A stretch of DNA of 64,000 bases. Source: an uncultured Bdellovibrionales bacterium (lineage in GTDB: Bacteria > Patescibacteriota > Minisyncoccia > Moranbacterales > UBA1568). This document shows positions 3,298 through 21,997 of the stretch, one piece after another. Under the pieces are notes generated by a model, which saw nothing but the letters and a program-made list of their open reading frames with translations, did no database searches and was not told where the DNA came from. A program made the position numbers and the translations under genes. Every line of letters begins with the position of its first letter. The stretch's first letter is position 1. The stretch is from contig CAYTED010000006.1 in NCBI GenBank assembly GCA_964436855.1, forward strand, positions 19,681-83,680, read 5' to 3'.

Positions 3298-3347
3298 TTC
3301 AATAGATAAATAACAAGAAGTCCATAAACACTAATGGAACCATAAAT

Positions 3348-4029: not shown

Positions 4030-4200
4030 AAAAGAGACAAGAAGCTGTCTTAAATGGTAAAATGATACAAGGGTCGTCCCATGTCTCATTTGTCTCGTTT
4101 TATCCTCAAAACCGCGACCCGAGAGCCTCAATTCACTCGTCGGCCAAGACCTCCAAGAAATCCCTCAACGGCTTGATTTCTCAAAGTTCTAGACCGATGA
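4030..4200. repeat. conserved recombinase 3'-flank repeat, copy 1 (candidate att/recombination site with multiple TGTCTCA/TGAGACA subsites)
   Basis: About 93% identical over ~143 bp to 13719-13860. Contains five 7-8-bp TGTCTCA/TGAGACA motifs in direct and inverted orientation and a GGGTCG..CGACCC stem. Abuts the recombinase stop codon. Confidence 0.7.
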
Positions 4201-5706
4201 CGCCCGCCAAAATTCGGAATCAGAAGAAACGGACAAAGCGGGGTCGCGCCGAAGGCGCGACACTAATGCATTCCCCCCGCCGAATCCAGAATCCAAAAGG
4301 GTTTTCCACGCTCCGCGTGGCTCAAAAAGTACGGTTCGATCCTTAATTTGAAAGTTCGAACCGACTTTTTTGAACAAATGAAGATTTTCTTCATTTGTTC
4401 CCTCGTTTGTCAATTCCATACTGGATTTTATGAATCTATCAGCAAGTTCGAACCGATTATGAGATTTTTTCTCAAAAGATGATAATTTCTCTTTGAGAAG
4501 CTGTTTTTGACACATCAGCTTGTTTTTAGAATCACGATATTCGTCTAGCGAAAGTGCGTTCTCTAGGTAAGCACTCATCAGCTTCTCAATTTTGGAATCC
4601 AAAAGAGAAATTTCATCTTTTGTTTTTTGAGAAAAAATCTCACTCGATTGGACTTCTGATTGCCGATCTTTCTCGTTTTCGGCAATCATCCAGTTTGCCC
4701 AATCGAGTGGCAAAGAAACTTTTTGTACTTCCGTTCTGATTTGAGAAGTTATGATTTCCTCGCGAACATATTTTTGTTCACAAGGATTTTTCCGTTTAGT
4801 ACAGCGGAGATAGTTATGACCTTTCTGTGTTTCGGTAGTAATGAAGTAACCACATTCTCCGCAACGGAAAAATCCTCTGTATAGATAATATTTCAAACCT
4901 TTTCCCTTCGGCTTACTTTTCCTCATCATCACTTCTTGAACGGAATCAAAAAGTTTCTTTGTGATAATCGGTTCATGCTTACCCTCAAAAATCTCTCCGT
5001 TATATCGCATTAGTCCTGTGTAGATAGGATTTTTGAGGATTTGCTGATAGTTCGACACCGCAAGTTCCTTTCCGCTTTTTCGCCTCAATCCAAGTCCGTT
5101 AAATTTATCTCGGATTTGATGCAAAGTGAACGACCCTGTTGCGTATGCCTCAAATGTTTTTTTGATAAGCGGAGCTATCTCTTTGTCGGGAACAATGCCT
5201 TGTCCTTTTACATTCACATATCCAAGTGGAGACATTTGAGGCCATATACCTTCTTTCACTTTGTTGCGATGACCTCGTTTGATATTTTCCGACAAATTGT
5301 CCACATAATACTTAGATTGCGAAAAAGCGATTGAAAGCATGAATTTGCCTTGCGGTGTCGGATCACACCAGAAAGTTGGAAATTTTAGCTCGGCAATCTT
5401 TCCCGTATCGAGCAAATAGATAATTTTTCCACCATCAACAGAATTTCTCGCTAATCTGTCGGGATGCCAAGCTAAAATTCCATTTGCTTCACCTTGCTCG
5501 ATACGGAGAAGCATTTCATTAAATACTGGCCGACCTGGGACTTTGGCGGTTTGTTTTTCTACGAAAATATCAACAACCTCGATTTGCTCTTTCAACGCGA
5601 GTTCTTTGAGTTCAGCCAGTTGATCTGAAATACTTCTCACTTGCCGATCTTCGGTGTCGGTTGATTTCCTTGTGTAGATGAAAAACTTTCTGGTGTGATT
5701 ATTCAT
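4189..5706 (-). CDS. large serine recombinase (resolvase/integrase family)
   Basis: N-terminal resolvase catalytic motif (FIYTRKSTDTEDRQVRSISDQ, catalytic Ser), recombinase domain and C-terminal zinc ribbon (CGECGYF...CTKRK), 505 aa. Confidence 0.9.
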   Translation of the reverse strand: MNNHTRKFFIYTRKSTDTEDRQVRSISDQLAELKELALKEQIEVVDIFVEKQTAKVPGRPVFNEMLLRIEQGEANGILAWHPDRLARNSVDGGKIIYLLDTGKIAELKFPTFWCDPTPQGKFMLSIAFSQSKYYVDNLSENIKRGHRNKVKEGIWPQMSPLGYVNVKGQGIVPDKEIAPLIKKTFEAYATGSFTLHQIRDKFNGLGLRRKSGKELAVSNYQQILKNPIYTGLMRYNGEIFEGKHEPIITKKLFDSVQEVMMRKSKPKGKGLKYYLYRGFFRCGECGYFITTETQKGHNYLRCTKRKNPCEQKYVREEIITSQIRTEVQKVSLPLDWANWMIAENEKDRQSEVQSSEIFSQKTKDEISLLDSKIEKLMSAYLENALSLDEYRDSKNKLMCQKQLLKEKLSSFEKKSHNRFELADRFIKSSMELTNEGTNEENLHLFKKVGSNFQIKDRTVLFEPRGAWKTLLDSGFGGGNALVSRLRRDPALSVSSDSEFWRASSV

Positions 5707-5929
5707 AGAATTGTATTGGCAAACGAGGAGCCACGCGGAGCGTGGCGAATCCTTGCAGAATCAGGATTTTGTGGGGGGAATACAGAGCAGACGGCGCCTC
5801 GCGCCGACCGCATTTTTGCTTCGGAATCCGATTTCCAATTTTGGCGGTGTTTGTTGGACAAAGTTCGAATGTATTTCGAGCAGAATCCCGAAGACTAATC
5901 GCGCCTCGTCCGCTCCCTTCGGTCGCGGT

Positions 5930-6025
5930 ACAAAACCAAAAATTTTCCTTCCTTTCTTCTGATTTTCGGCGGGGGGTGTGGGGGGAGCCGACAAAAAATG
6001 GAAAGGAAATTTTTGGTTTTGGTTC
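5930..6025. promoter_or_regulatory. stem-loop presenting a G6TGTG6 motif (copy 1)
   Basis: A 25-bp inverted repeat (acaaaaccaaaaattttccttcctttc / gaaaggaaatttttggttttggttc) flanks cggcGGGGGGTGTGGGGGGagccg. The same G-rich core recurs at 15242-15280. Confidence 0.5.
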
Positions 6026-6074
6026 CGACGCTTCATAAAAATACTGTTTTGCACACTTGTGTTATAACTTAACA

Positions 6075-6104
6075 TTGAGCCAAAACACAATAGCGTGATA
6101 TAAT
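6075..6104 (+). promoter_or_regulatory. sigma70-like promoter upstream of the ydeI-xre-broN operon
   Basis: TTGAGC, 18-bp spacer, TATAAT, ending ~30 bp upstream of the ATG at 6133. The palindrome ACACTTGTGT lies just upstream. Confidence 0.45.
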
Positions 6105-6132
6105 AATCAGTGTTGATAAGTTTTCATAGAAT

Positions 6133-6432
6133 ATGGCGAAACAAGTAACACAAAAAATACCGCATACTTTACCTAAGGACATGCGAGACGTACTCACCAC
6201 TCACTCCGATGTTAAAGCAAAGTGGGATACTCTCACTTCACTTGCTCAAAATGAGTGGATTTGTTGGGTGACTATTGTGAAGAAAAAAGAAACTCGGAAT
6301 GAGCATCTTGCTCGGTTTGTTCAGGATTTACAAAAAGGAAAAAGAAGACCATGTTGTTGGCCAGGATGTCCGCATCGCAGACCAAGTGCACAAAAGTGGT
6401 TTAGTAGCAAAACAAGGTTAGTAAATAAATAA
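6133..6432 (+). CDS. YdeI/OmpD-associated (OmdA) family protein
   Basis: 99 aa with AKKPETR-like core (VKKKETRNEHLARFVQDLQKGKRRPCCWPGCPHR) typical of the YdeI/OmdA family. Assignment is from memory. Confidence 0.5.
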   Translation: MAKQVTQKIPHTLPKDMRDVLTTHSDVKAKWDTLTSLAQNEWICWVTIVKKKETRNEHLARFVQDLQKGKRRPCCWPGCPHRRPSAQKWFSSKTRLVNK

Positions 6433-6433
6433 T

Positions 6434-6643
6434 ATGGCAAAAACCACAGCACAAAAATTTGGCGAAAATATGAAAAAGATTCGGCTCGAAAAAGGTATGT
6501 CGCAAGGCGACATTTGCCGAGAGTTAGGATTAGATCGAGCATATATTAGCAATGTCGAGAACGGCAAACAAAATCTTACAATTAGCACAATGGAAAAGGT
6601 CGCCACAGTGCTTGGGGTTAGCGTAGATCAACTTTTAAAATAA
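6434..6643 (+). CDS. XRE-family helix-turn-helix transcriptional regulator
   Basis: 69 aa with HTH_3 pattern (GMSQGDICRELGLDRAYISNVENGKQNLTISTMEKVATVLGVSVDQLL). Starts 1 nt after the upstream gene. Confidence 0.85.
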   Translation: MAKTTAQKFGENMKKIRLEKGMSQGDICRELGLDRAYISNVENGKQNLTISTMEKVATVLGVSVDQLLK

Positions 6644-6645
6644 CT

Positions 6646-7500
6646 ATGACGACACAAAATCAAACCATTACCAAAATCGCTATTTTTCAGAAAAAGGAAG
6701 TTCGCAAGATTCTCTATAAAAATGAGTGGTGGTTTTCTGTAATTGATGTTATTGAGGTTTTAACAGATACAGCACGCCCACGAAAATATTGGAGCGACCT
6801 CAAGAAGAAACTAATAAAAGAGGGTTATTCTGAAGTGTCCGAAAATATCGGACAGTTGAAAATGACCTCTCCTGACGGCAAAAAGCGAGAAACTGACTGC
6901 GCGAATACCGAAACAATTTTTCGCATTATCCAAGCTATACCATCACCAAAAGCAGAGCCGTTCAAGCGTTGGTTGGCGCGGGTTGGTTATGAGCGAATTG
7001 AAGAAATAGAAAATCCGGAACTTGCCACAAAACGCACGCGTGCGTTATACAGGGCAAAAGGATATTCAGATGCTTGGATTGAAAAACGAATGCGTGGTAT
7101 TGAAGTACGCGAGACACTTACGGACGAATGGAAAAAACGTGGAGTAAAAGAAGGGCAGGAATATGCAATTCTCACAGCGGAAATCTCAAGAGCAACATTT
7201 GGTATGACACCGAGTCAATACCAAAAACTCAAAGGTTTGAAGCGGGAAAATTTGCGCGACCACATGAATGACCTCGAGCTTATTTTTACAATGCTCGGCG
7301 AAGCCTCAACTACCGAAATCGCTCGCAACAAAAACACCCAAGGATTTTTGGAAAATAAAATTGCTGCGAAAGAAGGAGGAGATATAGCTGGTGAAGCACG
7401 CCGAAAACTTGAAATAAAGAGTGGTAAAAAAGTTTCTACTGGTGAAAATTATTTACCAGAGCCAAAGTCGAATCGCAAGTTAAAGCCAAAAAATACATGA
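6646..7500 (+). CDS. Bro-N domain protein (DinD/phage antirepressor-like)
   Basis: N-terminal Bro-N pattern (ITKIAIFQKKEVRKILYKNEWWFSVIDVIEVL...KYWSDLKKKL), 284 aa. Typical cargo of phages and integrative elements. Confidence 0.8.
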   Translation: MTTQNQTITKIAIFQKKEVRKILYKNEWWFSVIDVIEVLTDTARPRKYWSDLKKKLIKEGYSEVSENIGQLKMTSPDGKKRETDCANTETIFRIIQAIPSPKAEPFKRWLARVGYERIEEIENPELATKRTRALYRAKGYSDAWIEKRMRGIEVRETLTDEWKKRGVKEGQEYAILTAEISRATFGMTPSQYQKLKGLKRENLRDHMNDLELIFTMLGEASTTEIARNKNTQGFLENKIAAKEGGDIAGEARRKLEIKSGKKVSTGENYLPEPKSNRKLKPKNT

Positions 7501-7964
7501 AACTGACATTCGATGAAAACTTGATAGCGGACTACACCAGTGCTTCTCAAAAGGTCAGAGTTTTAAGCGAGAATTTGGTCTTAAAGGAAATATATTGCCC
7601 TAATTGCGGTGAGTCTATTTTTGAATATCAAAACAATAAACCCGTTGCCGATTTTTACTGCTCAAAATGTTCAGAGGATTTCGAACTCAAGTCAAAGCAA
7701 GGAAAATTTGGCAAAAAAGTTTCCGCTGGCGCATATTCCAAAATGATAGAAAGAATCAATTCTGCACAAAAGCCGAATTTCTTCTTCATGGGATATCTGC
7801 TAGAACTTTTGAATGTTAATGACTTCTTTGTTGTTCCAAAACATTTCTTTGTATCTGAAATTATCGAAAAGCGAAAACCATTATCCGAAACTGCTCGTCG
7901 AGCGGGTTGGGTCGGTTCAAATATTCTCTTTTCAAAAATACCGAAGGCAGGGCAAATCTTTTGA
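7497..7964 (+). CDS. DpnI-like (Dam-replacing family, type IIM methyl-directed) restriction endonuclease catalytic domain, lacking the C-terminal winged-helix domain
   Basis: Strong resemblance to the DpnI N-terminal region: YCPNCG...NKPVADFYCSKCSEDFELKSKQG, PNFFFMGY, RKPLSETARRAGWVGSNI (recalled from memory). The ORF stops after ..SKIPKAGQIF; DpnI continues for ~80 aa more. Overlaps the bro-N stop by 4 nt. Confidence 0.6.
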   Translation: MKLTFDENLIADYTSASQKVRVLSENLVLKEIYCPNCGESIFEYQNNKPVADFYCSKCSEDFELKSKQGKFGKKVSAGAYSKMIERINSAQKPNFFFMGYLLELLNVNDFFVVPKHFFVSEIIEKRKPLSETARRAGWVGSNILFSKIPKAGQIF

Positions 7965-8019
7965 TGAAAGCCTGAAGCAACTTGGTAAAGTCCTTGGATT
8001 TGAGGCTTCAAGACCTGAA

Positions 8020-8421
8020 ATGAATGGGGATGGAACTTTAGACGTATGCTGGGAAGATGAGGAAAGGAAAGTTGTTATAGGGTTTGAAAATAAAATTGAA
8101 AAGACTAATAAGATTCTATCTAAACAAGAAATAGACCAGTGTTCTGGACACGGAAACTGGCTCTCACAAAACTACCCTGACTATGAGCGCATCATGTTTG
8201 TTGTTGGTCGAATTGATGGCTATAACGAATTAGCGTCTCCTCTTGATCTAAATATTTTGGAAGTAACAGAAATTGAGAGAGTGTCAGGTGAGATTAAACA
8301 GGTACATGGGAAAAAGGTTTACCCTGAGCAAGTGGACGCATCTCTTGACTCTCAAAAACTAAGGGCTAGTAGTATCTTTCCTCAAGTTAAAGTTTCGTCT
8401 TTACCGAAGATAAAGTGCTGA
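8020..8421 (+). CDS. hypothetical protein (possible replacement C-terminal module for the DpnI-like nuclease; start uncertain)
   Basis: The ORF at 7813-8421 overlaps the DpnI-like gene in another frame; the first in-frame ATG after that gene's stop is at 8020 (MNGDGTLDVCWEDEERK...). No recognisable motif. Confidence 0.35.
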   Translation: MNGDGTLDVCWEDEERKVVIGFENKIEKTNKILSKQEIDQCSGHGNWLSQNYPDYERIMFVVGRIDGYNELASPLDLNILEVTEIERVSGEIKQVHGKKVYPEQVDASLDSQKLRASSIFPQVKVSSLPKIKC

Positions 8422-8431
8422 TTTCAAGTTC

Positions 8432-9523
8432 GTGATTGAATACTATAAATATCTCAAAGGCCATTCCTACTACTCCAACCTCTACGACCGCATCACCATA
8501 GAGGAATGCCAGCGTTGGGAAAATAAGGAATATCCTAAATCGCTTAAGGAGACCGATGAGGAGGCAAAGCTTACAAAAGTAAAAGAAGAGTATTTTCATA
8601 AAGTGGTTATCCGGCTTGCCATATACTTTCTCACCGCTGACCGTGCTGCAAAAAAATCTGAAACCATTCAGGAATGGATGAAGCGAGACCAAGAAAAGGA
8701 TGAGCGAGTGGCTAATGCTGAAGAGCCGCGGGGTATCCGTTGTCTTGGTTGCAGTTCGCTTTTAACGAATTGCATTTCTCGAGATCTCATGGATAACCAC
8801 CAAGGACAAGAAGCGGTTCTTTTCATGTTCGAATGTGGAAAATGTCACAAACGCCGAGCCTTTTGGGAGAATGGCAAGGAGTGGGAGCATAAGCCGAAGT
8901 GCATACAGTGCCGATCGGAAGTGGTATCAGAGAATACAAGAGAAGGCGATATTATCACCACTCGATACTCCTGCTCTCATTGTGGCAATGTAGAGGTGGA
9001 CACTATGGATCTGAACAAGAAAGAAGAAGAGGTTGATCCTCACTTTGAGGCGAATCGAAAGAAATATTGTATTTCAGAACTAGAGGGCAAAGAGATCATT
9101 CGTGAATCTCAGGAGATGAAAGAGCTTGTCGATAGCTGGAGAGAAAGGGATGAAAAGAAAGAGTTATACGAAGACATAGCTAAGATCCAGAAACTAACCT
9201 TGGTTGAGCTCCAAACCCTTGTTACCCCGGTCATAGAGAAGGCGGGGTATACCAAGCTTGAGTTTGAGAAGCCTACCTTAGAGAAGGATGTGATCCTCGG
9301 ATTCAGTCTCCAAGATGCTCAATCTGGCCGAGTAGAGTACGATAGCGTCCATAATCTCCAGAAGCTCCTGAAAAAGACCCTTGAGCCAACAAATTGGCGC
9401 CTAATGAGCGAAGGGGTCAGTTATCGCCTTGGATTCCTCCAAGGGCGTTTAAAGGGTGTGGAAGGCGAGGAAAAGCTTAAGCAGCTTCTAGAAACAGAGA
9501 GAAAAAAGAAATCTAGAGAGTAG
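8432..9523 (+). CDS. hypothetical protein with two CxxC...CxxC zinc-ribbon-like modules
   Basis: 363 aa with CLGC, CGKC, CIQC and CSHC pairs in the central region and a charged coiled-coil-like C-terminus. Confidence 0.5.
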   Translation: MIEYYKYLKGHSYYSNLYDRITIEECQRWENKEYPKSLKETDEEAKLTKVKEEYFHKVVIRLAIYFLTADRAAKKSETIQEWMKRDQEKDERVANAEEPRGIRCLGCSSLLTNCISRDLMDNHQGQEAVLFMFECGKCHKRRAFWENGKEWEHKPKCIQCRSEVVSENTREGDIITTRYSCSHCGNVEVDTMDLNKKEEEVDPHFEANRKKYCISELEGKEIIRESQEMKELVDSWRERDEKKELYEDIAKIQKLTLVELQTLVTPVIEKAGYTKLEFEKPTLEKDVILGFSLQDAQSGRVEYDSVHNLQKLLKKTLEPTNWRLMSEGVSYRLGFLQGRLKGVEGEEKLKQLLETERKKKSRE

Positions 9524-9548
9524 AAAATAATCCGGTTTTGCGATTGAT

Positions 9549-10433
9549 ATGAATCCAGAAAACGTGTCGGTTACGTTTTCCATAGTTGTGGCAAATAACA
9601 CCCACAGAAATCATACTAAGTTTTCTGAAGAGTGGAATTTTTCTATTGATCGTTATACCTTCACTCGAATAAGCAAGGATGAAGTAAGAGTTTCCTTTAC
9701 TTTTGATGCTGTTCTAAAGAAATATGATGAGGATTATCGACTCGTTGATGAATGTCCCTCAGAGTATCTCCCCGAATATCAGGAATGCGAGGAAGAAATC
9801 GAAGTTATATTAGATTTACTGTCTCTGGAAGTTGGGGCGGGATTACAGATAAAAGAGGAAAGTTTTCTTTTTGCCTCAGCCACCTGTAGAAATAACGAGT
9901 TTAAGAATAGTCGCTTCATAGTGCCTTCAAAAACAAGGGATATCTATCCTCAATTTGAAATAGAAGATAATAGAAAGCTAGGGCTAGCTCTTCGTCTGTA
10001 TCGGCAGTCGGTGTCTACGAATGATCCTCGGGAACAAATGGTGAAGCTTTTTGCTGCTCTTGAACAACTATTTTCTAATGAAGGGAAGCGAATGTTGACC
10101 AAAGAAGAGATTGACCAGGTTAGAGGAGCTGTGGAGGCCTTGTCTCTTTCGCCAGAAAAAAAGAAGATTATCCTTGATAGAGTTTGTGACATCAGAAAAA
10201 GCTCGAAAACAATGATTGCGGAGAATCTTGAGTTAATGAGCGGTGACGAGCTGATTTCTGAAGAAGAGCGAAAGCAGCTGGTTGGGACTTGGAATAAATA
10301 TAGGTCAGTGATAGCGCATGGGGAGCTTATTTCAAGAAGAGACATGGATTTTGATTATGCTGTTTCTGAAATTGATACGATTGTCGAAGCAATCTTGAAA
10401 AGAAGCATAGAACACAGGATGCGAGAGTCTTAA
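9549..10433 (+). CDS. hypothetical protein
   Basis: 294-aa ORF with a plausible context (26 nt after the upstream stop); no recognisable domain. Confidence 0.45.
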   Translation: MNPENVSVTFSIVVANNTHRNHTKFSEEWNFSIDRYTFTRISKDEVRVSFTFDAVLKKYDEDYRLVDECPSEYLPEYQECEEEIEVILDLLSLEVGAGLQIKEESFLFASATCRNNEFKNSRFIVPSKTRDIYPQFEIEDNRKLGLALRLYRQSVSTNDPREQMVKLFAALEQLFSNEGKRMLTKEEIDQVRGAVEALSLSPEKKKIILDRVCDIRKSSKTMIAENLELMSGDELISEEERKQLVGTWNKYRSVIAHGELISRRDMDFDYAVSEIDTIVEAILKRSIEHRMRES

Positions 10434-10458
10434 GTGGCTTGTGATGGAGAAATAAAAA

Positions 10459-10486
10459 TCACCCGGAAGCACAAGCTTCCGGGTGA
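10459..10486. terminator. bidirectional rho-independent-type hairpin between convergent genes
   Basis: tcacccggaagc-acaa-gcttccgggtga perfect 12-bp stem, between the + gene ending at 10433 and the - gene ending at 10501. A TGTCTCA motif follows. Confidence 0.55.
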
Positions 10487-10500
10487 AAAGTTGTCTCATC

Positions 10501-12525
10501 TCACTTCTTCGAATACCTCGAGTAATACGCGCAGACCTCGGTGTTCGGGTCACCAACCGGAGTGCTCCCGTCCTGTTTGAGGCAGGCCCGGATAGTATGC
10601 CACTGGAGCTTCCAAGCGCTGCTCGAGGGAATCGGCCAGCCGTTACCTTCCATATAGTCCTCGTCGGTGCCGCCGGGAGGCAGTTCCGAGGGATGGATGA
10701 CGCCGTAGCCGATGTTCCACCATGCTCCGCCCGTCGCTACCGGACTCGAGATATGGTAGAGGACGGTGACATCGGTGGCGGGAGCGACCGGACCGTCGTT
10801 TCGCACCCAGATATCGGGCTTGATACGGCTTCCCGTGTTGGTGGTACAGCAGCCGACCTCATCCTGGAACTTGGTGATGACAAGCTTGGGCGCCGGTCTC
10901 GGTTGAAGAACGAAGGAGAGGCTCGTGCAGTTGTTCGTCTCGTCCGATTCGGATACCGCTCCTTGGTAGTCGGCACAGAAGTACGCCGTGCAGGCACCGG
11001 TAACGTTCGGGAGAGTGACAGACCCGATGTTTTCCTCGAACGCGGATGCACCAGCGGAAAGCGTGCTCGCCATGGTTCCGTCATCGGCCAGATAGATGAG
11101 ACTGGTACCGGGGCACTGGACGCTGTAGCTGCTGCGGATATCCGCTGGAGAACCGATATTGCCTTGGTTGGTTACCCAAGCGCCGAACCGAGCCTGATCC
11201 CCTGCATAGTACGGAGCCTGCCGGAACTGGAGGCCGCTTGTCACGAAATCGACGAAGCGCGGATCCTGGTTCTCGATCGGATTGGCCGTCACCTCGAAGA
11301 CCGCTTCGGTACTGCAGTTGTTGCTTTCGTGTTTTTCCTGATGGTCACCTCCGTTGTTGTGATCGTCCCGGGGATGATCGATGCAGTAGACGATGTTGTA
11401 GATGCCCGGTTCCGTGATCCACTGACTGATGACCGTGTTTTTGGTCTCGGTATGGGTGTCACCCGGCTTCAGGTTATCGCACTGCGTCGTCGTACTGTCG
11501 ATCCTCTGCCATGCTCCGTCTCCGCTGTGAACATCCTCCTTGTACCCCTTGGAGAGGTAGAAGTGGCCGGTGATGGTACTGATCTCGCCGCTGACACACT
11601 GGCCGTCGCCGATATTCTCGGACTGGGCTTTGGTATCGAAGGACTCGTTCAGGCCGAACTTGTATATCTCATCGCCCCACGGAGTGACGAGCCAAGTCTT
11701 CCGGACGATGAAGTCGGGAAGATTCGGATTCGGAGCGTCGGCCGCTTCGGTAAGATAACCGGCGCCGGCACCATGCACCGCGAGCGTCGCGTTGCCAGCC
11801 ACTACCGTTCCCGTATAGACATTGATGGTATTGACCGTACCGAACGACTGTATTTCAGCGGCACTCGCTACCTTTCCGAAGAAATTGACGATCGCACGCC
11901 ACCATTTCCGCCACCCATGATCCTCGGGGATTCTTTCCTGGGGATTGGGAGCGCTCGTGATGTAGGTCAGGTTGGATTGCAACTCACCACATACACTTGC
12001 ACCTTCTATCTGGGCATACGGTGGGTTGACGATACGATACCAAGACGTCGCCGTCTCGCAGGAAGCTGTCTTCGGCTCCCAGCAGATGTCGCCCTGACAC
12101 ATAGTCTGCGCTTCAGTTGAGGGATTGTAGGCGTAGTGGGTTTGGATGAAGGCAATTGGGTCAATGAAAGTATTAGTACACTGACTGTTTCCATCGCAAG
12201 GATTGGTCCAGAATGAATTATTCATTCTTCCCCAGCCCTTACCACCACCAGTTGGTGGAATACTATCCCCAATACACGCCGAAATGCAGGTGAGCACCAT
12301 TGGCACTGCCATTCCATATGCCGGTTTTCCCAATTGGTTTTCCGGCATAGACATCGTTACCGGCCGGAAGGGTTCCGCTTGAAAGATGGCCGTATAGCGC
12401 GGTAAACACCTGCCCATCATGCGTCTTATGCTTGATGAACAAAGCACAGTTTCCAGGACCCCATGAGGCATCATCGCAATGGCGTTTGTAGATCGTGCCG
12501 TCCGCAATAGCGTAGACTTTGGCAT
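10501..12525 (-). CDS. large secreted Cys/Trp/Gly/Asn-rich protein domain; N-terminal part of this ORF overlaps the M23 peptidase gene in another frame
   Basis: 674-aa ORF in GC-rich DNA with >30 Cys and many Trp and no recognisable domain. Its first ~85 codons overlap the 12263-12745 ORF, so the true product probably begins at the frameshift point near 12262. Confidence 0.5.
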   Translation of the reverse strand: MPKSTLLRTARSTNAIAMMPHGVLETVLCSSSIRRMMGRCLPRYTAIFQAEPFRPVTMSMPENQLGKPAYGMAVPMVLTCISACIGDSIPPTGGGKGWGRMNNSFWTNPCDGNSQCTNTFIDPIAFIQTHYAYNPSTEAQTMCQGDICWEPKTASCETATSWYRIVNPPYAQIEGASVCGELQSNLTYITSAPNPQERIPEDHGWRKWWRAIVNFFGKVASAAEIQSFGTVNTINVYTGTVVAGNATLAVHGAGAGYLTEAADAPNPNLPDFIVRKTWLVTPWGDEIYKFGLNESFDTKAQSENIGDGQCVSGEISTITGHFYLSKGYKEDVHSGDGAWQRIDSTTTQCDNLKPGDTHTETKNTVISQWITEPGIYNIVYCIDHPRDDHNNGGDHQEKHESNNCSTEAVFEVTANPIENQDPRFVDFVTSGLQFRQAPYYAGDQARFGAWVTNQGNIGSPADIRSSYSVQCPGTSLIYLADDGTMASTLSAGASAFEENIGSVTLPNVTGACTAYFCADYQGAVSESDETNNCTSLSFVLQPRPAPKLVITKFQDEVGCCTTNTGSRIKPDIWVRNDGPVAPATDVTVLYHISSPVATGGAWWNIGYGVIHPSELPPGGTDEDYMEGNGWPIPSSSAWKLQWHTIRACLKQDGSTPVGDPNTEVCAYYSRYSKK

Positions 12526-12745
12526 CCAGGCTACGAGTCATCATATCGGTGCCAATATGGTAAACCCCATCAGGTTCATAGCATCCATCACTGAAACGAT
12601 CCCGACCAAGCCATGTCCCACATTGCTGATCGAAACCTGCTGTGCCGATCGGGTAGAAAAACCCAGTTTCCATTTGATCAAGCGCGTAGGTTGCATTCGC
12701 GAACATGCACAAGATCATGAGGATGAATCTCATCACTGCTTTCAT
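12263..12745 (-). CDS. secreted M23 (LytM-type) metallopeptidase domain protein
   Basis: Signal peptide MKAVMRFILMILCMFANATYA; M23 motifs HIGTDM (HxxxD) and ...GAHLHFGVYWG (HxH). Terminates 3 codons after the HxH motif at a GGGG tract. Confidence 0.75.
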   Translation of the reverse strand: MKAVMRFILMILCMFANATYALDQMETGFFYPIGTAGFDQQCGTWLGRDRFSDGCYEPDGVYHIGTDMMTRSLDAKVYAIADGTIYKRHCDDASWGPGNCALFIKHKTHDGQVFTALYGHLSSGTLPAGNDVYAGKPIGKTGIWNGSANGAHLHFGVYWG

Positions 12746-12857
12746 GCTTCTCTCCTTGTCGGTGAGTTTGGTTGTGAACGAACTACAGATGTAGCGATGG
12801 AAATATCATCCTACAAAATTCTCGCATCAGACTCGATACGAGAATTATTGCAAGACA

Positions 12858-13511
12858 CTATTCAAGAAACTTGAACGTTTTTGTCATACCAAGAAAAATG
12901 GTGTGCTCATCTACGTGTATATTATTGTTTGGGTCATAATATAGTTGAAAACTAATAGTCCAAGCTTTATCGCTATTAAAGAAATATACACTTTTTTCAC
13001 CGAGTACTATCGCTTTTGTGTTATCGACGGATAGTGATGATAAGTTTTCACCGTAACCAGATTTTCTTTTCTGTAAAAACTCCCTGATAGGCATCGCTTT
13101 TTTATTAAATCGATCAGACGACATCACAAGGATAGCCGCACCCGATTCGCCACCTTCTGAGATAGGATAAGTTGTTCCTTCTTTTCCAAAATACAGATAC
13201 TCTCCTTTTATTTCACTATCTTTGTAAGTATTTACGAGCTTCCAGTTTTTAGGAATCTTCATTTCAAATCCCGCCTCTTCGTTTCGATACGTTTGCCAAT
13301 CAGAGGTATCAATGGGAGCGAAAACATACTCTCCATCAATAAGATCCTTTACACTTTCGATCTCATCATCCTTTGCTGATTGTCGTTCGATTTTTTCCGC
13401 TATTTTCTCTGATTGAGACACATTTTTTATCTTCCACCAAAGAATTCCTGTCCCAGTAAGAACGAGTGCAATGAAAACTACAATAGCTATTTTTTTATGA
13501 TTCATAATCAT
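12858..13511 (-). CDS. membrane-anchored hypothetical protein
   Basis: 217 aa with an N-terminal TM (IAIVVFIALVLTGTGILWW) and no recognisable domain. Confidence 0.45.
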   Translation of the reverse strand: MIMNHKKIAIVVFIALVLTGTGILWWKIKNVSQSEKIAEKIERQSAKDDEIESVKDLIDGEYVFAPIDTSDWQTYRNEEAGFEMKIPKNWKLVNTYKDSEIKGEYLYFGKEGTTYPISEGGESGAAILVMSSDRFNKKAMPIREFLQKRKSGYGENLSSLSVDNTKAIVLGEKSVYFFNSDKAWTISFQLYYDPNNNIHVDEHTIFLGMTKTFKFLE

Positions 13512-13689
13512 TCGCTAAAGCCTATCGGATTACTCTACATGATTCTTCATATCAGAAATATAAAGAAAAGATAAAATATTTATAAAATCGCCAATCATGC
13601 TTAGTCTAGCGACTGACTGTATAAAATCATGGAATAACCCTTTTGTCAAAGCCAAAAGCGAATAGAAAACTAGTTGGTATTTCGGTGTC

Positions 13690-13860
13690 GTATGAGACAT
13701 ATAACTGTCTCAGTATGCTAAAATGAGACAAGGGTCGTCTCGTGTCTCATTTGTCTCATTTTATCCCTGAAACCGCGACCCGAGAGCCTCAATTCACTCG
13801 TCGGTCAAGACTTCCAAGAAATCCCTCAACAGCTTGATTTCTCAAAGTTCTAGACCGATG
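13690..13860. repeat. conserved recombinase 3'-flank repeat, copy 2
   Basis: See copy 1. Includes the perfect 12-bp inverted repeat aaaatgagacaa/ttgtctcatttt around gggtcgtctcgtgtctcat and five TGAGACA/TGTCTCA motifs. Confidence 0.7.
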
Positions 13861-14164
13861 TAGCCCGCAGATAGGAACAAGGCAGGTTTTCGGAAACGCC
13901 AAGGAAGGGGCTCTTGGCTTGAACGCGCAATACTTTGTCCGTCAGTGTGAGGTTCGAACTGATGGCACGCATGATCTGCTTCTTGCATCGACTGTCACCG
14001 GTCTCGTAGCGAAAGAGGGCTTGTTTGCGGAACGAATCGAGTGTGTTCTCGAATTCGAACCGATCCGGACGATCTTCTAAGAGTTCTGAAATTTGAGATT
14101 CAATAGACATAATCTGTCTATCCTCACTCTCGGTAGATTTTCTGGTGTAGATAAAGTATTTCAT
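13850..14164 (-). pseudogene. serine recombinase remnant (internally deleted: N-terminal ~35 aa joined to C-terminal ~65 aa)
   Basis: MKYFIYTRKSTESEDRQIMSIESQ matches the catalytic N-terminus of the 4189-5706 recombinase. The C-terminal part (RFEFEN...LRATSV) matches that recombinase's C-terminus (RFELAD...WRASSV). Only 104 aa. Confidence 0.7.
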
Positions 14165-14195
14165 AAAGATTTAGAAAAGCCCGCTTCTGGCCTTA

Positions 14196-14260
14196 CTGAA
14201 TTCAAAACGGCTTGAATTTTCGGCGAAAAACGGCTGGCGAGCCCGCGTAGCGGGCGAGCC
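14196..14260. repeat. 65-bp inverted repeat, left copy (IR-L), abutting the XRE start codon
   Basis: ctgaattcaaaacggcttgaattttcggcgaaaaacggctggcgagcccgcgtagcgggcgagcc is the reverse complement of 15345-15409 with one mismatch. Contains the inner hairpin GCCCGC-GTA-GCGGGC. Confidence 0.8.
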
Positions 14261-14467
14261 ATGGCAACTGAAAACAACATTGGCGAAAATATAAAGAAAC
14301 ACCGCACAAGATTAGGGCTTTCGCAAGAAAATTTTGCCCAAAAGTCTGGTGTGAAGTATACGACTCTTACAAAGATTGAAAGCGGGGTTATTCAAAAGCC
14401 ATCTGTCGTTTTGGTGGCAAAAATTGCTAAAGTCCTCGGTGTTTCTATTGAGGATTTATTGAAATAA
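14261..14467 (+). CDS. XRE-family helix-turn-helix transcriptional regulator (paralog of 6434-6643)
   Basis: 68 aa with HTH_3 pattern (LGLSQENFAQKSGVKYTTLTKIESGVIQKPSVVLVAKIAKVLGVSIEDLLK). Confidence 0.85.
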   Translation: MATENNIGENIKKHRTRLGLSQENFAQKSGVKYTTLTKIESGVIQKPSVVLVAKIAKVLGVSIEDLLK

Positions 14468-14468
14468 T

Positions 14469-15185
14469 ATGGAAGAAAAAGAACAACCTAAAAATTTAGA
14501 ATATCGGGATTACATTGAAGGCACGCGTAAAGTGCTTGAACAAAGCAAGACTGAAACAGGACCATATGAAGTAACTGTTTCGGGGAAAAAATTTATTGTT
14601 TTTCCAAATGTTTTTTCTCCGAAATACTTTAACGATACGGAATTATTTGCAGACAACTTTCCGGTCCAAGATGGAGAGGAGATGTTAGAAATAGGTCCTG
14701 GAACGGGTGCCATTTCGATTCTCGCTATTTATAAAGGTGCTGGAAAAGTTTTGGCGATAGATATAAATCCCGATGCAGTAAAAAACACACAGGCCAATAT
14801 CAAACTTCACAATTTGCAAGAAAAGGTTGAAGTTCGGCAAGGTAACTTATATGAGTCCCTTAAATCCGATGAGAAATTTGATACGATATTTTGGAACACG
14901 CCGTTTGGATTTATTGAAGACGAGGATGTGCCAGACCTAGAAAAAGCGGTCTATGATCCTGCATACAAATCAACCGAGAAGTTTATCAGAGAGGCAAAAC
15001 AGCACTTGAAAAAAGGAGGGCGAGTTTTGGTAGGTTTCAGTACGACTTTGGGTAGATTGGATTTGCTTCAAAAATTTGCCGAAGAAGCAGGATTATCTCT
15101 ACGTCTAATTTATGAGGTAGAATCAAAGGAGACACATCCTGTTAAGTTCGAAATTTTTGAAGCCTTACCGATTGAGTCAGAATGA
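14469..15185 (+). CDS. class I SAM-dependent methyltransferase (small-domain/HemK-RsmC-like; substrate unknown)
   Basis: SAM-binding motif I LEIGPGTGAISI, an acidic residue after beta2 (AIDIN) and an NPPY-like motif IV as NTPFGF. Starts 1 nt after xre. Confidence 0.75.
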   Translation: MEEKEQPKNLEYRDYIEGTRKVLEQSKTETGPYEVTVSGKKFIVFPNVFSPKYFNDTELFADNFPVQDGEEMLEIGPGTGAISILAIYKGAGKVLAIDINPDAVKNTQANIKLHNLQEKVEVRQGNLYESLKSDEKFDTIFWNTPFGFIEDEDVPDLEKAVYDPAYKSTEKFIREAKQHLKKGGRVLVGFSTTLGRLDLLQKFAEEAGLSLRLIYEVESKETHPVKFEIFEALPIESE

Positions 15186-15241
15186 AAATTTGCCGCCAAA
15201 GAAAAACTTGAAATCGTCCTTTCCGCTCCGGTTCAAGGCGA

Positions 15242-15280
15242 GGCGGGCGGAAGGGGGGTGTGGGGGGAATTCCGCCCGCC
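15242..15280. promoter_or_regulatory. stem-loop presenting a G6TGTG6 motif (copy 2)
   Basis: Perfect inverted repeat ggcgggcgg / ccgcccgcc flanking aaGGGGGGTGTGGGGGGaatt. Confidence 0.5.
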
Positions 15281-15344
15281 GAGCCCAGAGAGTTCCGTTC
15301 GGATATTTTCAAACAGACACCGCCAGTTAGGAAATGAAGTCATT

Positions 15345-15409
15345 GGCTCGCCCGCTACGCGGGCTCGCCAGCCGTTTTTCGCCGAAAATTCAAGCCTTTT
15401 TGAATTCAG
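15345..15409. repeat. 65-bp inverted repeat, right copy (IR-R)
   Basis: Reverse complement of 14196-14260 with 1 mismatch. Confidence 0.8.
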
Positions 15410-15463
15410 CATAAAGTTCGAGCCGACATTTTTAAGAAATGCGCGGATTTGCGTTTTGTCGCC

Positions 15464-15600
15464 CTACGACAAAAGAATTTTGGCTTGGCTACTCAATAAA
15501 ATCACTTCTCGCATCGGTTCGAGCCAATTATTTCCTTTTTGTTCAAAAGCCGATAATTTCTCTTTGAGAATGGGTGCTCTTTTCGTGCCTTGAGAAAAAG
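15464..15600 (-). pseudogene. third serine recombinase fragment (C-terminal end only)
   Basis: Minus-strand translation LKEKLSAFEQKGNNWLEPMREVILLSSQAKILLS* is homologous to LKEKLSSFEKKSHNRFELADRFIKSSMELTN of the intact recombinase. The DNA shares gataatttctctttgagaa with 4484-4502. Truncated by the alkD-like gene. Confidence 0.5.
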
Positions 15601-15624
15601 AGATGGGGCGAGTACAATTTTTCT

Positions 15625-16323
15625 ATGATTGCGCCACAAAAAACAATTCGATTACTGGCTCATCCGAAGAAGGCAATGCATGCATCGCGGTTTTTCAAGA
15701 CCGGAAAAGGGGAGTATGGCGAGGGAGATGTTTTTCTGGGACTTACGGTTCCGGAGTCGCGGACGATTGCGAAACAATACCGAGACCTTTCTTTGTCGGA
15801 TATCGAAATATTGCTTCAGTCGAAATATCATGAAGAGCGGTTGGTAGCACTCATTATTCTCGTCGAGCGATTTCGTTCTGGAAATTCACGCGAACGAAAA
15901 ATCATTTTTGATTTTTATAGCGCGCATTTGGATCGGGTGAATAATTGGGACTTAGTTGATATTTCGGCGGATAAAATTGTCGGGGCATATTTGTTCGGGA
16001 AATCGACGCGTCAATTGAATCGATGGATTCGATCGGATATTCTGTGGGAGCGTCGCGTGGCGATGGTCGCGAGTTTCTGGTTTATCAAAGAGGGAAATGC
16101 AACGCTTTCGTTTCATCTTGCGGAACAACTTTTGAATGATAAGGAGGATCTGATGCACAAGGCGGCGGGATGGATGCTTCGTGAGGCGGGGAAGCGGGTT
16201 TCGAAGATTGCTCTCGTGAAATTTTTGGAGAAAAACGCCAGGAAAATGCCACGAACCATGCTTCGGTATGCGATTGAACATTTTCCGGCGCCAGAACGGC
16301 GTCGATTTTTGTCGCTACAATAA
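15625..16323 (+). CDS. DNA alkylation repair protein (AlkD/AlkC-like HEAT-repeat glycosylase family)
   Basis: MHASRFFKTGKGEYGEGDVFLGLTVPESRTIAK... is typical of PF08713-type proteins. Start set at MIAPQ (15625) because upstream codons overlap the recombinase fragment. Confidence 0.75.
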   Translation: MIAPQKTIRLLAHPKKAMHASRFFKTGKGEYGEGDVFLGLTVPESRTIAKQYRDLSLSDIEILLQSKYHEERLVALIILVERFRSGNSRERKIIFDFYSAHLDRVNNWDLVDISADKIVGAYLFGKSTRQLNRWIRSDILWERRVAMVASFWFIKEGNATLSFHLAEQLLNDKEDLMHKAAGWMLREAGKRVSKIALVKFLEKNARKMPRTMLRYAIEHFPAPERRRFLSLQ

Positions 16324-16371
16324 GGCGAAATGGGAGGGTGATATAATAAGGGCGAAATAATTCTGTAAAGC

Positions 16372-17547
16372 GTGTTTATGAAAAAAACGGTGAAAGGGCA
16401 GACTGGTGCTGTTCGGAGGGATGTGGGAGCGAAAGCGCTTGAACTTCATAAAAAACTGCGGGGAAAAATTTCGGTCGAACCAAAAGCGAAGTTGTCGCCA
16501 GAGACACTGAAGCTTCTCTATACGCCGGGTGTAGGTACGGTGTCGCTTGCGCTTGCGGAGAAGCCGGAGCGAACGGATGAATACACGTGGCGAGGAAATA
16601 CAGTGGCGATTGTGTCGGATGGATCGGCAGTGCTTGGACTCGGGAATATTGGCCCCGAGGGTGCCCTTCCGGTTATGGAGGGGAAGGCATTTCTTTTCAA
16701 GGCACTTGCGGGAATTGATGCAGTACCGATTGTACTTGGGGTGCAGTCAATCGAAAGTGTTGTTGAAACAGTAATGAATATTTCGCCATCATTTGGTGGA
16801 ATTAATTTGGAAGATATTGCTGCGCCGGATTGTTTCGAGATCGAGCAACAATTGAGGGAGCGACTCGATATTCCGGTCATGCACGATGATCAGCATGGCA
16901 CGGCGATGGTGGTACTCGCCGGACTGATCAATGCGCTCAAGGTGGTGAAGAAGCGTCCAAAAGATTGCGTGATTGTGGTTGGTGGCGCGGGCGCTGCTGG
17001 GCAGGCAATTGTCGATCTACTTCTTCGCTTTGGCATAGGAGAGATCTTGGTTGTTGATAGTCGAGGCATTATTCATCACGATCGTCCGGATCTCAATAAA
17101 TACAAGAAAGAAATTGCCGACAAGACGAATCAGTCGCGCGTATCGGGCGATCTTACCGAGGCGCTCGCAGGGGCGGATGTCTTTATCGGGGTGTCTCGAG
17201 GTGGAACGGTGACGGAGGATATGGTGCGGTCGATGGCGTCGAAGCCGATTGTATTTGCACTTGCGAATCCGTATCCGGAGATTTTGCCACCGGATGCTCT
17301 GCGTGGTGGGGCGGCAGTTGTTGCGACGGGACGATCGGATTTTCCAAATCAGATCAATAATGCACTTGGATTTCCGGGGATTTTTCGTGGCGCTCTTGAT
17401 AGGGGTGTACGAGAAATTACCGATGATATGCTCTTTCGCGCATCGAAACGATTGGCGGCGATGGTGAAACGACCGACAGCGGACTCTATTATTCCTTCGG
17501 TGTTTGATAAGCAAGTCGCGAAGGAAGTGGCGAAAGCGATTTACTAG
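16372..17547 (+). CDS. NAD(P)-dependent malic enzyme
   Basis: YTPGVG, VSDGSAVLGLGNIGPEGALPVMEGKAFLFKALAGIDAVPIVL, and a Rossmann GGAGAAG motif. Confidence 0.85.
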   Translation: MFMKKTVKGQTGAVRRDVGAKALELHKKLRGKISVEPKAKLSPETLKLLYTPGVGTVSLALAEKPERTDEYTWRGNTVAIVSDGSAVLGLGNIGPEGALPVMEGKAFLFKALAGIDAVPIVLGVQSIESVVETVMNISPSFGGINLEDIAAPDCFEIEQQLRERLDIPVMHDDQHGTAMVVLAGLINALKVVKKRPKDCVIVVGGAGAAGQAIVDLLLRFGIGEILVVDSRGIIHHDRPDLNKYKKEIADKTNQSRVSGDLTEALAGADVFIGVSRGGTVTEDMVRSMASKPIVFALANPYPEILPPDALRGGAAVVATGRSDFPNQINNALGFPGIFRGALDRGVREITDDMLFRASKRLAAMVKRPTADSIIPSVFDKQVAKEVAKAIY

Positions 17548-21061: not shown

Positions 21062-21997
21062 CTATCTTTCTCCTCTCTTCCTTTTTGCGGCGTGGAATTT
21101 TTTGTGGGTTTCTTTCAGGTATTCGTTCGAAACATGGGTGTAGATCTGGGTCGTGGTGATAGAGCTGTGGCCGAGCATGGTTTGAACACTTCGAATATCG
21201 GCGCCGTTTTGGAGAAGGTCGGTCGCGAAACTGTGGCGGAGGGTGTGCGGGTGGACATCCTTCACAATACCGGCTTTCGCGGCAGAGTGCTTTACGATAC
21301 GCTGGACGCTCCGTGCAGTGAGGCGGATGGATTTTTTGTCGATTTTTTCCGGGTGTTTTGGAAAGGAAACAAAGAGCGCCGAATCGAGGTCGTCGCGTTT
21401 TTTGAGGTACGATTCGAGTGCGTTTTTCGCCGATGGAGAGAGAAAAACGATACGAAGTTTACTCCCTTTGCCGCGGACGCTGAACTCTTCTTTTTTCAGA
21501 TTGATGTGGTCGCGATTGAGGTTTACGAGCTCGGAAACGCGAAGGCCGGCAGAGAAGAGGAGTTCGAGGATTGCGCGGTCACGGAGGGATTTTCGGTCGG
21601 AGCCGTTTGCTGACTCGATGAGGCGGAGCACTTCGTCGTATTCTAGAAAATCGACTTGTCGCATCGGCACCTTTCCAATTTCAATTTTTTCCGCCGGGAC
21701 GGCCGCAATGTCTTCTTTGGCAAGGAACTTAAGAAAGGATCGGAGAACGACGATGTGGAAGGTTTGGCTGACCTTTTTCATCGGTTCGCCTCGACCGGTT
21801 TCGAGACGGTTCAGGTATATCCGGTATTCGCGGATTTTTTCGAGAGTGATGCTTTCCGGGTCGATAATACGTCCCCAGTTGGTGAATTTTACGAGCGATC
21901 GCTCGTAGTTTGCAAGGGTCCGGGGCGCTCGATTGAGTTCGATTTCCAGGTGCTCGAGGAATTTTTGAATGAGGGATTGTATTTTTGTCGTTGGCAT
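21062..21997 (-). CDS. tyrosine recombinase XerC/XerD family
   Basis: C-terminal catalytic motifs HTLRHSFATDLL and LGHSSITTTQIYTHV (R-H-R-Y), 311 aa. Confidence 0.9.
   Translation of the reverse strand: MPTTKIQSLIQKFLEHLEIELNRAPRTLANYERSLVKFTNWGRIIDPESITLEKIREYRIYLNRLETGRGEPMKKVSQTFHIVVLRSFLKFLAKEDIAAVPAEKIEIGKVPMRQVDFLEYDEVLRLIESANGSDRKSLRDRAILELLFSAGLRVSELVNLNRDHINLKKEEFSVRGKGSKLRIVFLSPSAKNALESYLKKRDDLDSALFVSFPKHPEKIDKKSIRLTARSVQRIVKHSAAKAGIVKDVHPHTLRHSFATDLLQNGADIRSVQTMLGHSSITTTQIYTHVSNEYLKETHKKFHAAKRKRGER

Follow-up and report, generated by a model that had tools for sequence, protein, structure and literature searches.

The subject of this analysis is a 66-nt inverted repeat in the DNA of an uncultured bacterium of the Patescibacteriota, together with the two genes that it encloses, an XRE-family regulator and an S-adenosylmethionine (SAM) methyltransferase. 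The whole stretch that was analysed, 64,000 nt of contig CAYTED010000006.1, is referred to as the window. The locus is very probably a decayed piece of a tandem array, in its simplest form a dimer, of one type of large serine recombinase (LSR) island that targets the 3′ ends of tRNA-Ser genes. The regulator and methyltransferase pair is truncated island cargo, and it does not form a cassette that jumps or switches by itself. The window has three recombinase copies that bear on this conclusion, namely two remnants that flank the repeats (rec2 on the left and rec1 on the right) and an intact paralog (recA) at what we term locus A, as do the loci of relatives, which are numbered L001 onwards. Taken alone the window locus is an ordinary fossil, and it is the architecture of the family that is of interest.

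The repeat-bounded locus and its recombinase remnants

The two repeats (14196–14261 and 15344–15409) are 66 nt each, complementary at 65 of 66 positions and 1082 nt apart, and are thus slightly longer than the 65 nt reported in a preliminary description of this DNA. Their complementarity breaks off sharply at the outer edges. The full arm and two sub-segments have no further place in the 64-kb window, and 100 shuffles gave 0 matches; the check for other copies suggested in the preliminary description, run on the window and the fetched loci, also returned only these two arms. In the list below an arm is a repeat lying upstream of a recombinase gene (5′) or at its coding end (3′), P is a conserved segment beyond the 5′ arm, and the core is the short CCGCCA-type sequence between P and arm.

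13715–13868, no strand: D1′ repeat, beyond the stop of the left recombinase remnant; 92% identical to 4054–4207 beyond the recA stop
13850–14164, minus strand: rec2 remnant, an open reading frame (ORF) of 104 aa; catalytic N-terminus of a large serine recombinase (FIYTRKSTESEDRQ..SIESQ) fused to a C-terminal tail of a different arm type
14165–14195, minus strand: spacer of 31 nt from the rec2 start codon to the 5′ arm (modal 22 nt in intact relatives)
14196–14261, no strand: left inverted repeat, the ATG-proximal 66 nt of the rec2 5′ arm, assigned from its position relative to the rec2 ATG and the family layout
14261–14467, plus strand: XRE-family helix-turn-helix regulator, 68 aa (HTH_3, E 1e-15); first cargo gene, as in ~29 relatives
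14469–15185, plus strand: MTS-type (HemK/RsmC-like) SAM methyltransferase, 238 aa (MTS PF05175, E 7e-18, 65 bits; motif WNTPFGF)
15186–15319, plus strand: P-like segment with hairpin 15242–15280, G6TGTG6 loop and pseudo-tRNA-like tip GTTCGGATATTTTCAAACAGACA
15320–15325, plus strand: CCGCCA core, where in relatives the element sequence meets the tRNA-Ser 3′ end; presumed crossover region
15326–15409, no strand: rec1 3′ arm, 18 nt plus the right repeat 15344–15409; continues the rec1 reading frame on the minus strand
15410–15571, minus strand: rec1 stub, a C-terminal fragment (~residues 403–455) with a stop codon (tblastn, blastn)

Much of the anatomy first described for this locus stands. The XRE and methyltransferase genes are the only credible genes between the arms, and the G6TGTG6 sequence (15253–15267) is the loop of a GC-rich stem at 15242–15280. 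The left side is without the remaining arm, core and P segment, so that the XRE ATG directly abuts the repeat, its A (14261) being the final base of the left arm. The enclosed segment also contains an attP-like junction, with its CCGCCA core at 15320–15325, that was absent from the preliminary description. This core and the P tip (15298–15325) occur on the right side only, outside the 66-bp repeat. The window hairpin is 95% identical to the hairpin of the P segment in L102, and the window P tip (GGATATTTTCAAACAGACA followed by CCGCCA) agrees with the tips of L084 and L102. The region upstream of XRE has been lost in the window; the closest relative, L083 (85% nucleotide identity), retains an 85-nt operator-like region before the same ATG.

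The claim that recombinase remnants lie just outside both repeats is borne out by tblastn with recA. On the left, residues 7–35 map to 14161–14075 (66% identity, E 1e-6), and on the right residues 403–469 map to 15571–15362 (33% identity, E 1e-4) in an alignment that enters the right repeat. The rec2 remnant retains only the YTRKST..SIESQ N-terminus, is internally deleted and chimeric, and has no Pfam match, too little sequence remaining. Within rec1, positions 15517–15570 share 91–93% identity with a segment that is conserved in 79 relatives. Neither remnant is more than a non-functional fragment. The spacer between the rec2 start codon and the left repeat recurs in L083, where it adjoins the arm. 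The left repeat pairs with the arm of rec1, and rec2 is a deletion chimera, since its C-terminal tail is of another arm type and is followed by the D1 repeat, as at recA.

Independent assemblies support part of this structure. L001 (SRR30303843) is 100% identical to the window over 13955–15216, and therefore the left junction is not a misassembly; no independent contig covers the right junction at 15216–15541. With orientation judged from assemblies only, the left junction has the window's arrangement in both L001 and L002, one of them crossing it and the other starting within the arm, and the flipped junction is found in neither. Exact-protein look-ups with XRE, the rec2 remnant, a 59-aa ORF across the right arm and recA gave no match, and those with the methyltransferase and an alkylation-repair gene returned only short contigs ending at repeats. 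A sigma-70-type promoter was looked for in the left arm and none was found. Rfam scans of window positions 3500–16500 and of L009 positions 3400–8000 linked neither the hairpins nor the D1 repeat credibly to any RNA family.

Two observations concern the sequence after the methyltransferase stop. The motif AATTTGCCGCCAAAGAAAAACTTGAAAT looked at first sight like a possible cassette boundary and was dropped as such, being restricted to the closest relatives. The sequence AATTTGCCGCCAAAGAAAAAyTTGAA, which includes a core-like CCGCCA, occurs after the stop in the window (15187–15214), in L083 (1085–1110) and in L084 (1795–1822 and 2308–2335), where one more small ORF separates the two copies, as the insertion of a 0.5-kb gene between them would produce.

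Architecture of the recombinase family

More than 7,000 homologs of recA were found; the best 120 are 79–89% identical to it, and the few of these with source names belong to Patescibacteria. A scan of one genome per species provided 80 loci of recA homologs from many candidate phyla (75–90% amino acid identity), 58 of which were evaluable for arms, counted at a length of at least 100 nt. Inverted arms of this length bracket the recombinase gene in 49 of the 58, with a modal arm of 120 nt. The arm pairs are 100% identical in 33 of the 49 loci and at least 95% identical in 47, values that repeat collapse in short-read metagenome-assembled genomes (MAGs) may inflate; the same 100% is seen in L009 and L041, whose records were deposited as complete chromosomes. 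Between the 5′ arm and the ATG there is a modal distance of 22 bp, and the last ~40 codons of the gene make up the 3′ arm. The recombinase ORF has no stop inside the arm and reads on into flanking DNA, which is why protein lengths are variable. At its end the 3′ arm reads TGGCGG or TTGCGG (CCGCCA or CCGCAA on the other strand) and abuts the reverse complement of a tRNA gene, which the tip of the arm completes. In 44 of 49 loci ARAGORN identified this gene as a convergent tRNA-Ser, four anticodons being represented. The orientation of the recombinase gene relative to the tRNA is invariant (49/49), and the cargo is flipped in some loci.

Upstream of the 5′ arm lies P, a conserved segment of ~200 bp whose tip resembles a tRNA 3′ half and is followed by CCGCCA. 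A second, inverted P copy encloses the cargo in 22 of 43 loci (120–273 nt, counted at 95% identity or more, with values of 99–100%, 1.5–5.4 kb further out). Beyond this distal P the sequence is genome-specific and usually contains a terminator-like hairpin, the kind of sequence that would follow a tRNA gene. In ~29 loci the cargo begins with XRE, which diverges from the recombinase gene; in L017, L051 and L054 (three of ~32 relatives) it stands at the far end and points inward, i.e., the cargo is flipped. The cargo is otherwise highly diverse and includes restriction-modification, ThsB-TIR, AAA_13/PDC-S06, cyclase, Fic and D-Ala-D-Ala ligase genes, among others. Conservation across loci peaks at the P tip, CCGCCA and the first ~12 nt of the arm, and again at the hairpin and the spacer beside the ATG. 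XRE-led cargo within long near-perfect repeats is a hallmark of this family, and the proposal that the window repeats are tied to the neighbouring serine recombinases is upheld.

Variants of this layout are informative. Tandem arrays with two recombinases on one strand are common, with examples in L019, L030, L040, L050 and L071. The order in L050 is a recombinase 3′ stub with arm, core and P, then cargo, then P, core, arm and recombinase, in a 389-nt inverted repeat, and thus reproduces the layout of the window. In L008 (5778–7596) a recombinase gene with identical arms, without P or cargo, lies between two real convergent tRNA-Ser genes (gga and gct); this arrangement of the sequence suggests that the internal site may have recombined with a second tRNA-Ser, with chromosomal rearrangement. 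In L102 the recombinase body is gone, leaving P-CCGCCA, an 85-nt palindrome of arm stubs, and TGGCGG-tRNA-Ser. L116 carries a 34%-identical recombinase beside tRNA-Thr, with the same arm layout and the same methyltransferase as neighbour. The window itself contains a tRNA-Ser(cga) gene (45156–45243) with an unoccupied 3′ end (…CCCTTTCCGCAAATT, CCGCAA), an empty target site for the element family. In IMG/VR only two distant relatives of the family recombinase were found (25–27% identity), a near-absence that makes a phage origin unlikely.

ARAGORN also reported a tRNA-Ser with the unusual anticodon ACT in L003, L015 (1935–2022), L021, L070, L081 and L082. In most of these loci it is divergent from, and ~70–100 nt from, the tRNA-Ser(GCT) that carries the element, and in L003 the ACT tRNA itself adjoins the element. 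It could be a duplicated or decayed copy.

In intact relatives the element consists, on the recombinase strand, of flank, TGGCGG with an inverted P (~200 bp), cargo with XRE first (1.5–5.4 kb), P, CCGCCA, arm A (~114 nt), ~22 bp, recombinase gene, TGGCGG and convergent tRNA-Ser. On the tRNA strand the order is tRNA-Ser, core and arm, then the inverted unit of arm, core and P, then cargo, and last P, core and the native downstream flank. The two element ends are those expected from integration of P-core-arm, an attP-like site, into the 3′ end of tRNA-Ser as attB, and a complete inverted P-core-A unit, also attP-like, lies between XRE and the recombinase gene. To integrate, the LSR would recombine P-core-A of a circular form with the tRNA-Ser 3′ end, a step supported by the empty tRNA-Ser(cga) of the window and by the layouts of L008 and L102. 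Gene conversion or recombination would keep the arms and P copies within an element nearly identical, and between elements these sequences differ. In tandem elements the cargo is bracketed by the 5′ arm of its own recombinase and the 3′ arm of the neighbouring one, the arrangement present in the window.

The window can be placed in this scheme with two gene copies, the left repeat preceding the rec2 ATG by 31 nt and the right repeat forming the in-frame end of rec1. XRE stands first in the cargo, divergent from rec2, and P, hairpin, tip and CCGCCA are found on the right (15186–15325), the left P having been deleted. On the minus strand the order is the rec1 stub (15571–15410), its 3′ arm (15409–15326), TGGCGG, an inverted P with G-rich hairpin, the antisense methyltransferase and XRE genes, the 66-nt 5′ arm, the 31-nt spacer and the rec2 ATG. 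Deletions would have removed most of both recombinases, the left core and P, and the region upstream of XRE. The ATP-binding cassette (ABC) transporter genes found downstream of the methyltransferase in relatives were probably deleted too. The present 66-bp repeat would have no function of its own and could at most be a substrate for rare homologous inversion.

The presence of an intact recombinase paralog nearby, already noted in the preliminary description, is confirmed by a three-domain match, and its locus has the following parts.

4189–5706, minus strand: recA, intact paralog, 505 aa; PF00239 (Resolvase), PF07508 (Recombinase), PF13408 (Zn_ribbon_recom)
4204–4323, no strand: recA 3′ arm, L009 type, within the last ~40 codons (nhmmer E 1e-36)
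5686–6106, minus strand: internal attP-like region of locus A, with spacer, 5′ arm 5728–5847, core, and P segment with G6TGTG6 hairpin 5971–5985 (nhmmer E 4e-98)
6133–8421, plus strand: locus A cargo, comprising YdeI/OmdA-like, XRE, Bro-N (PDC-S13), a truncated DpnI-like nuclease and a PDC-S28-like fragment

With its resolvase catalytic, Recombinase and zinc-ribbon domains recA is a large serine recombinase, and XRE and the other cargo are divergent from it. The gene is flanked by an inverted repeat of its own (4267–4323 and 5728–5784, 57 nt, 79%), with one arm among its final codons and 22 bp between the other arm and its ATG. The arms are of different family types, the 3′ arm being L009-like (4204–4323) and the 5′ arm L059-like (5728–5847), which suggests a hybrid gene formed by recombination between two elements. 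The D1 direct repeat, 154 nt, found beyond both recA and rec2, holds GAGACA/TGTCTC palindromes and a TAAAAT box and occupies the position of the tRNA-Ser gene in relatives; no tRNA and no Rfam family was detected in it. In L009 (5700–5740) and others the recombinase strand carries the G-rich side of the hairpin with its G-rich loop, but in locus A (5971–5985 on the plus strand) it carries the C-rich side; the hairpin therefore exists in flip and flop orientations. Among hairpin variants the stems differ and the loop motif GGGG(G)GTG(T)GGGGGG is kept. In the cargo, the DpnI-like ORF (within 7497–8421) covers 155 of 256 profile positions and overlaps an ORF at 7813–8421 that matches PADLOC PDC-S28 at its C-terminal end only; a truncated or fused nuclease gene is the probable explanation.

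Alternative readings and the methyltransferase

Several observations weigh against a decayed tandem pair. The window arms have no detectable sequence similarity to the arms of the 80 fetched loci by family-profile nhmmer or blastn: the nhmmer profile of P, core and arm found locus A, and blastn of the flanks of the window locus against the 80 loci matched conserved recombinase segments alone. For this reason the homology of the arms is argued from their position and reading frame, from the motif of core and P tip, and from the hairpin. The searches recovered no intact element with such arms. None of the three recombinase copies in the window (recA, rec2 and rec1) is adjoined by a tRNA-Ser; the D1 repeat or a P segment is there instead. 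The missing tRNA is expected for internal members of a tandem array whose terminal tRNA lies outside the view. In the closest relative, L083, arm and spacer have the opposite orientation relative to XRE, and the history therefore includes at least one rearrangement. The circular form, the crossover point and the activity of the recombinase are steps that we infer, and the perfect arm identity seen in short-read MAGs could in part be inflated by repeat collapse.

One alternative, already raised in the preliminary description, is an active phase-variable cassette, in which recA or homologous recombination flips 14262–15343 and alters expression of XRE and the methyltransferase. It would account for a segment bounded by long near-perfect inverted repeats with an intact family recombinase 9 kb away, it has a precedent in relatives whose XRE-led cargo occurs between P repeats in both orientations (L017, L051 and L054 versus ~29 loci), and population heterogeneity would fit the contig breaks at repeats, which fall within 600 nt upstream of the recombinase gene in 34 of 80 loci. 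However, multi-copy repeats and the G-rich hairpin explain such breaks equally well. The most conserved part of the site, core and P tip, is one-sided and outside the 66-bp repeat, both adjacent recombinases are fragments, the arms of recA are of a different sequence type, and the two other assemblies keep the window orientation at the left junction. Because the arms are identical and contain no promoter-like site, inversion would leave the same sequence upstream of XRE and no change of expression is predicted. An invertible cassette is thus unlikely here, and what survives of the idea is that cargo in relatives does occur both ways round. A related question is whether the window holds a single element as a circular permutation, an excised circle or dimer having re-inserted with the break inside the recombinase gene. 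The order from rec2 N-terminus, spacer, arm, XRE and methyltransferase to P, core, arm and rec1 C-terminus is that of a circular one-element form opened in the recombinase gene, and the arms, 98.5% identical, resemble the two arms of one element in relatives. The same data fit a trimmed tandem dimer, to which this arrangement is formally equivalent, but tandem arrays are observed in relatives and the circular form in none, and the foreign C-terminal tail of rec2 needs an extra recombination or deletion event in either case; we regard the permutation as highly improbable.

Least probable of all is a non-autonomous cassette of the miniature inverted-repeat transposable element (MITE) or insertion sequence (IS) kind, with 66-bp terminal inverted repeats that are mobilised in trans, as had also been proposed. 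A short unit of 1.2 kb with terminal inverted repeats beside recombinase genes has this appearance. Yet the flanks (...GGCCTTA on the left, CATAAAG... on the right) show no target-site duplication, no other copy exists in the window, neither arm is a cassette end among 124 fetched loci, and most homologs of the methyltransferase are without such flanking repeats. Each arm is accounted for as the 5′ flank or the 3′ coding end of a recombinase gene, and we know of no serine recombinase that transposes by terminal repeats or target duplication. An integron-like module, the remaining suggestion, is not supported, since the associated recombinases are of the serine type and no IntI-type enzyme or attC-like array was found, the only tyrosine recombinase in view (21062–21997) being Xer-like and 6 kb off. 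Among relatives, the recombinase gene and its arms could be taken as an element of the IS kind that is bounded by 120-bp terminal repeats and inserts between two tRNA-like half-sites; since P moves with the recombinase gene and equals it in conservation, a single composite element is preferred. A decayed tandem pair of tRNA-Ser islands is retained as the probable reading of the window locus.

The methyltransferase is the sole cargo gene left after XRE. Classification with hidden Markov models assigns it an MTS-type catalytic domain and stops there: in NCBIfam all specific models score below cut-off, the best being PRK14968.1-3 (96 versus 162 bits), followed by HemK2-like TIGR00537 (79 versus a cut-off of 87 bits) and TIGR03534 (59 versus 199). 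With these scores and an NTPF motif in place of NPPY it does not qualify as a HemK/PrmC or HemK2/MTQ2 glutamine methyltransferase. It is like HemK/PrmC, RsmC/RsmD and MJ0882-type enzymes in its Rossmann SAM-binding domain and its (N/D)PP(Y/F)-like motif IV (NTPF), and its best solved relative is MJ0882 (PDB, E 5e-9). It differs from them in having T and not P as the second motif residue, in its sub-threshold scores against the specific models, and in the transporter context of its relatives.

That context was surveyed at 42 homolog loci from metagenomes (36–88% identity). In ~11 the gene is in an operon with an NMT1/THI5-type binding protein, a permease and an ATPase, in 8 it has a divergent TrmB-type regulator, and few of the 42 are near an XRE gene, a recombinase or repeats. 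In L100 and L102 the order XRE, methyltransferase, substrate-binding protein, permease and ATPase lies within P repeats, and by comparison the window cassette looks like a truncated copy of such ABC-transporter-operon cargo. The preliminary description had raised the prospect of a mobile orphan DNA methylase, of interest beside the nearby DpnI-like gene; neither a DNA target nor a link to that truncated gene is supported. The enzyme has no target-recognition domain, and its 238 aa leave no room for one; PF02384 (N6_Mtase) gives just 21 bits, on the SAM and motif-IV region; and the PADLOC match to mad2, the N6 DNA methylase of MADS (E 1e-25), covers the catalytic core only (positions 278–416 of 492). 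Together with the below-cut-off scores and the transporter operon of its relatives, these features indicate that the methyltransferase is probably not a DNA methylase, a DNA substrate staying a formal possibility through the domain-level resemblance to mad2 alone.

Neighbouring features, significance and known systems

Elsewhere in the window, genes on the plus strand at 596–3965, which encode a Cu-type P-type ATPase, a cupredoxin-like protein and a CDF transporter, adjoin the D1 repeat and recA on their left. In layout they resemble cargo belonging to another element on that side, and L009 also has a P-type ATPase beside its element. Three ORFs on the plus strand (435, 176 and 429 aa) lie in the 3.4 kb between the arms of a further inverted repeat, which is AT-rich (53296–53346 and 56717–56767; 51 nt, 92%). 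A C-rich/G-rich hairpin of ~48 nt (CCCCTCCTCAATCCTCCCC...GGGGAGGAGGG) occurs in four copies, at 27102, 30102, 48884 and 53116, and is possibly a dispersed terminator-like or repetitive extragenic palindromic (REP)-like element.

Following this locus led to a widespread, highly conserved LSR of candidate phyla radiation (CPR) bacteria with a defined target, clear ends and doubled inverted repeats. A tentative generalisation, to which we give somewhat less than even weight, is that the relic may come from a class of mobile elements with serine integrases, so far undescribed and abundant in Patescibacteria, that targets tRNA-Ser (tRNA-Thr in a distant branch), carries an internal inverted copy of its attachment site and is recombinationally active. 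The internal site seems to be active because L008 has a recombinase gene between two tRNA-Ser genes and cargo occurs in both orientations. If so, inversion of the cargo by such an element would be possible, as would the bridging or inversion of chromosome segments that lie between tRNA-Ser genes, and accessory and defence genes would have in it a main carrier in these reduced genomes. The family would explain how defence systems and accessory genes move among CPR bacteria. Candidate roles for the perfect repeats around the integrase gene are autoregulation, inversion, or capture of a second site at another tRNA-Ser. CPR bacteria have tiny genomes and most of their lineages have no genetic tools, and their engineering would have a practical starting point in an integrase that is native to them, site-specific and aimed at a universal target.

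We found no description of this architecture in the literature on serine recombinases, Patescibacteria/CPR, tRNA-Ser and inverted repeats, the nearest concept being the tycheposons of Prochlorococcus. The family resembles them in integrating at specific tRNA genes, in small variable cargo that includes defence genes, and in tandem accumulation at one tRNA. It differs in that the tycheposon paper describes no internal inverted attachment site or repeat-bracketed integrase gene, in host phylum, and in recombinase type, since 910 of 937 elements (tycheposons and cryptic elements) carry tyrosine recombinases (bioRxiv 10.1101/2020.12.28.424599).

In its enzyme the family is closest to the large serine integrase elements, such as phiC31/Bxb1-type prophages, Tn4451 with TnpX, and SCCmec with Ccr. 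It shares with them the Resolvase, Recombinase and Zn-ribbon domains, site-specific insertion with a short core common to ends and target, and a recombinase gene at one element end that reads toward the attachment site. In contrast to these elements its target is the 3′ end of tRNA-Ser (44/49), which is typical of tyrosine integrases; its recombinase ORF has no stop within the element and reads into the antisense strand of the tRNA; a complete inverted attP-like copy lies inside, recombinase and cargo each being held within perfect repeats of 120–320 bp; and phage genes are absent.

Two further comparisons concern the repeats. In invertible segments (Hin/Gin switches, shufflons and the FLP system of the yeast 2-micron plasmid), as in this family, the recombinase gene lies in or beside a repeat-bounded segment, and cargo occurs in both orientations. 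The 2-micron FLP system has perfect inverted repeats of 599 bp, and the long perfect repeats of the family are similar in this respect. However, the family repeats are far longer than hix or gix, the enzyme is an integrase-type LSR and not a small invertase, the orientation of the recombinase gene relative to the tRNA is invariant (49/49), inversion leaves the sequence next to the genes unchanged, and the recombinases beside the window repeats are dead. A different precedent is offered by Tn3 and gamma-delta, in which the res site lies in the divergent tnpA-tnpR promoter region. The family likewise has a full recombinase site between the recombinase gene and a divergent gene, and by analogy with res this internal site suggests autoregulation by site binding. 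In contrast to res, the family site is an inverted duplicate of the element ends, 320 bp in length and kept identical to them.

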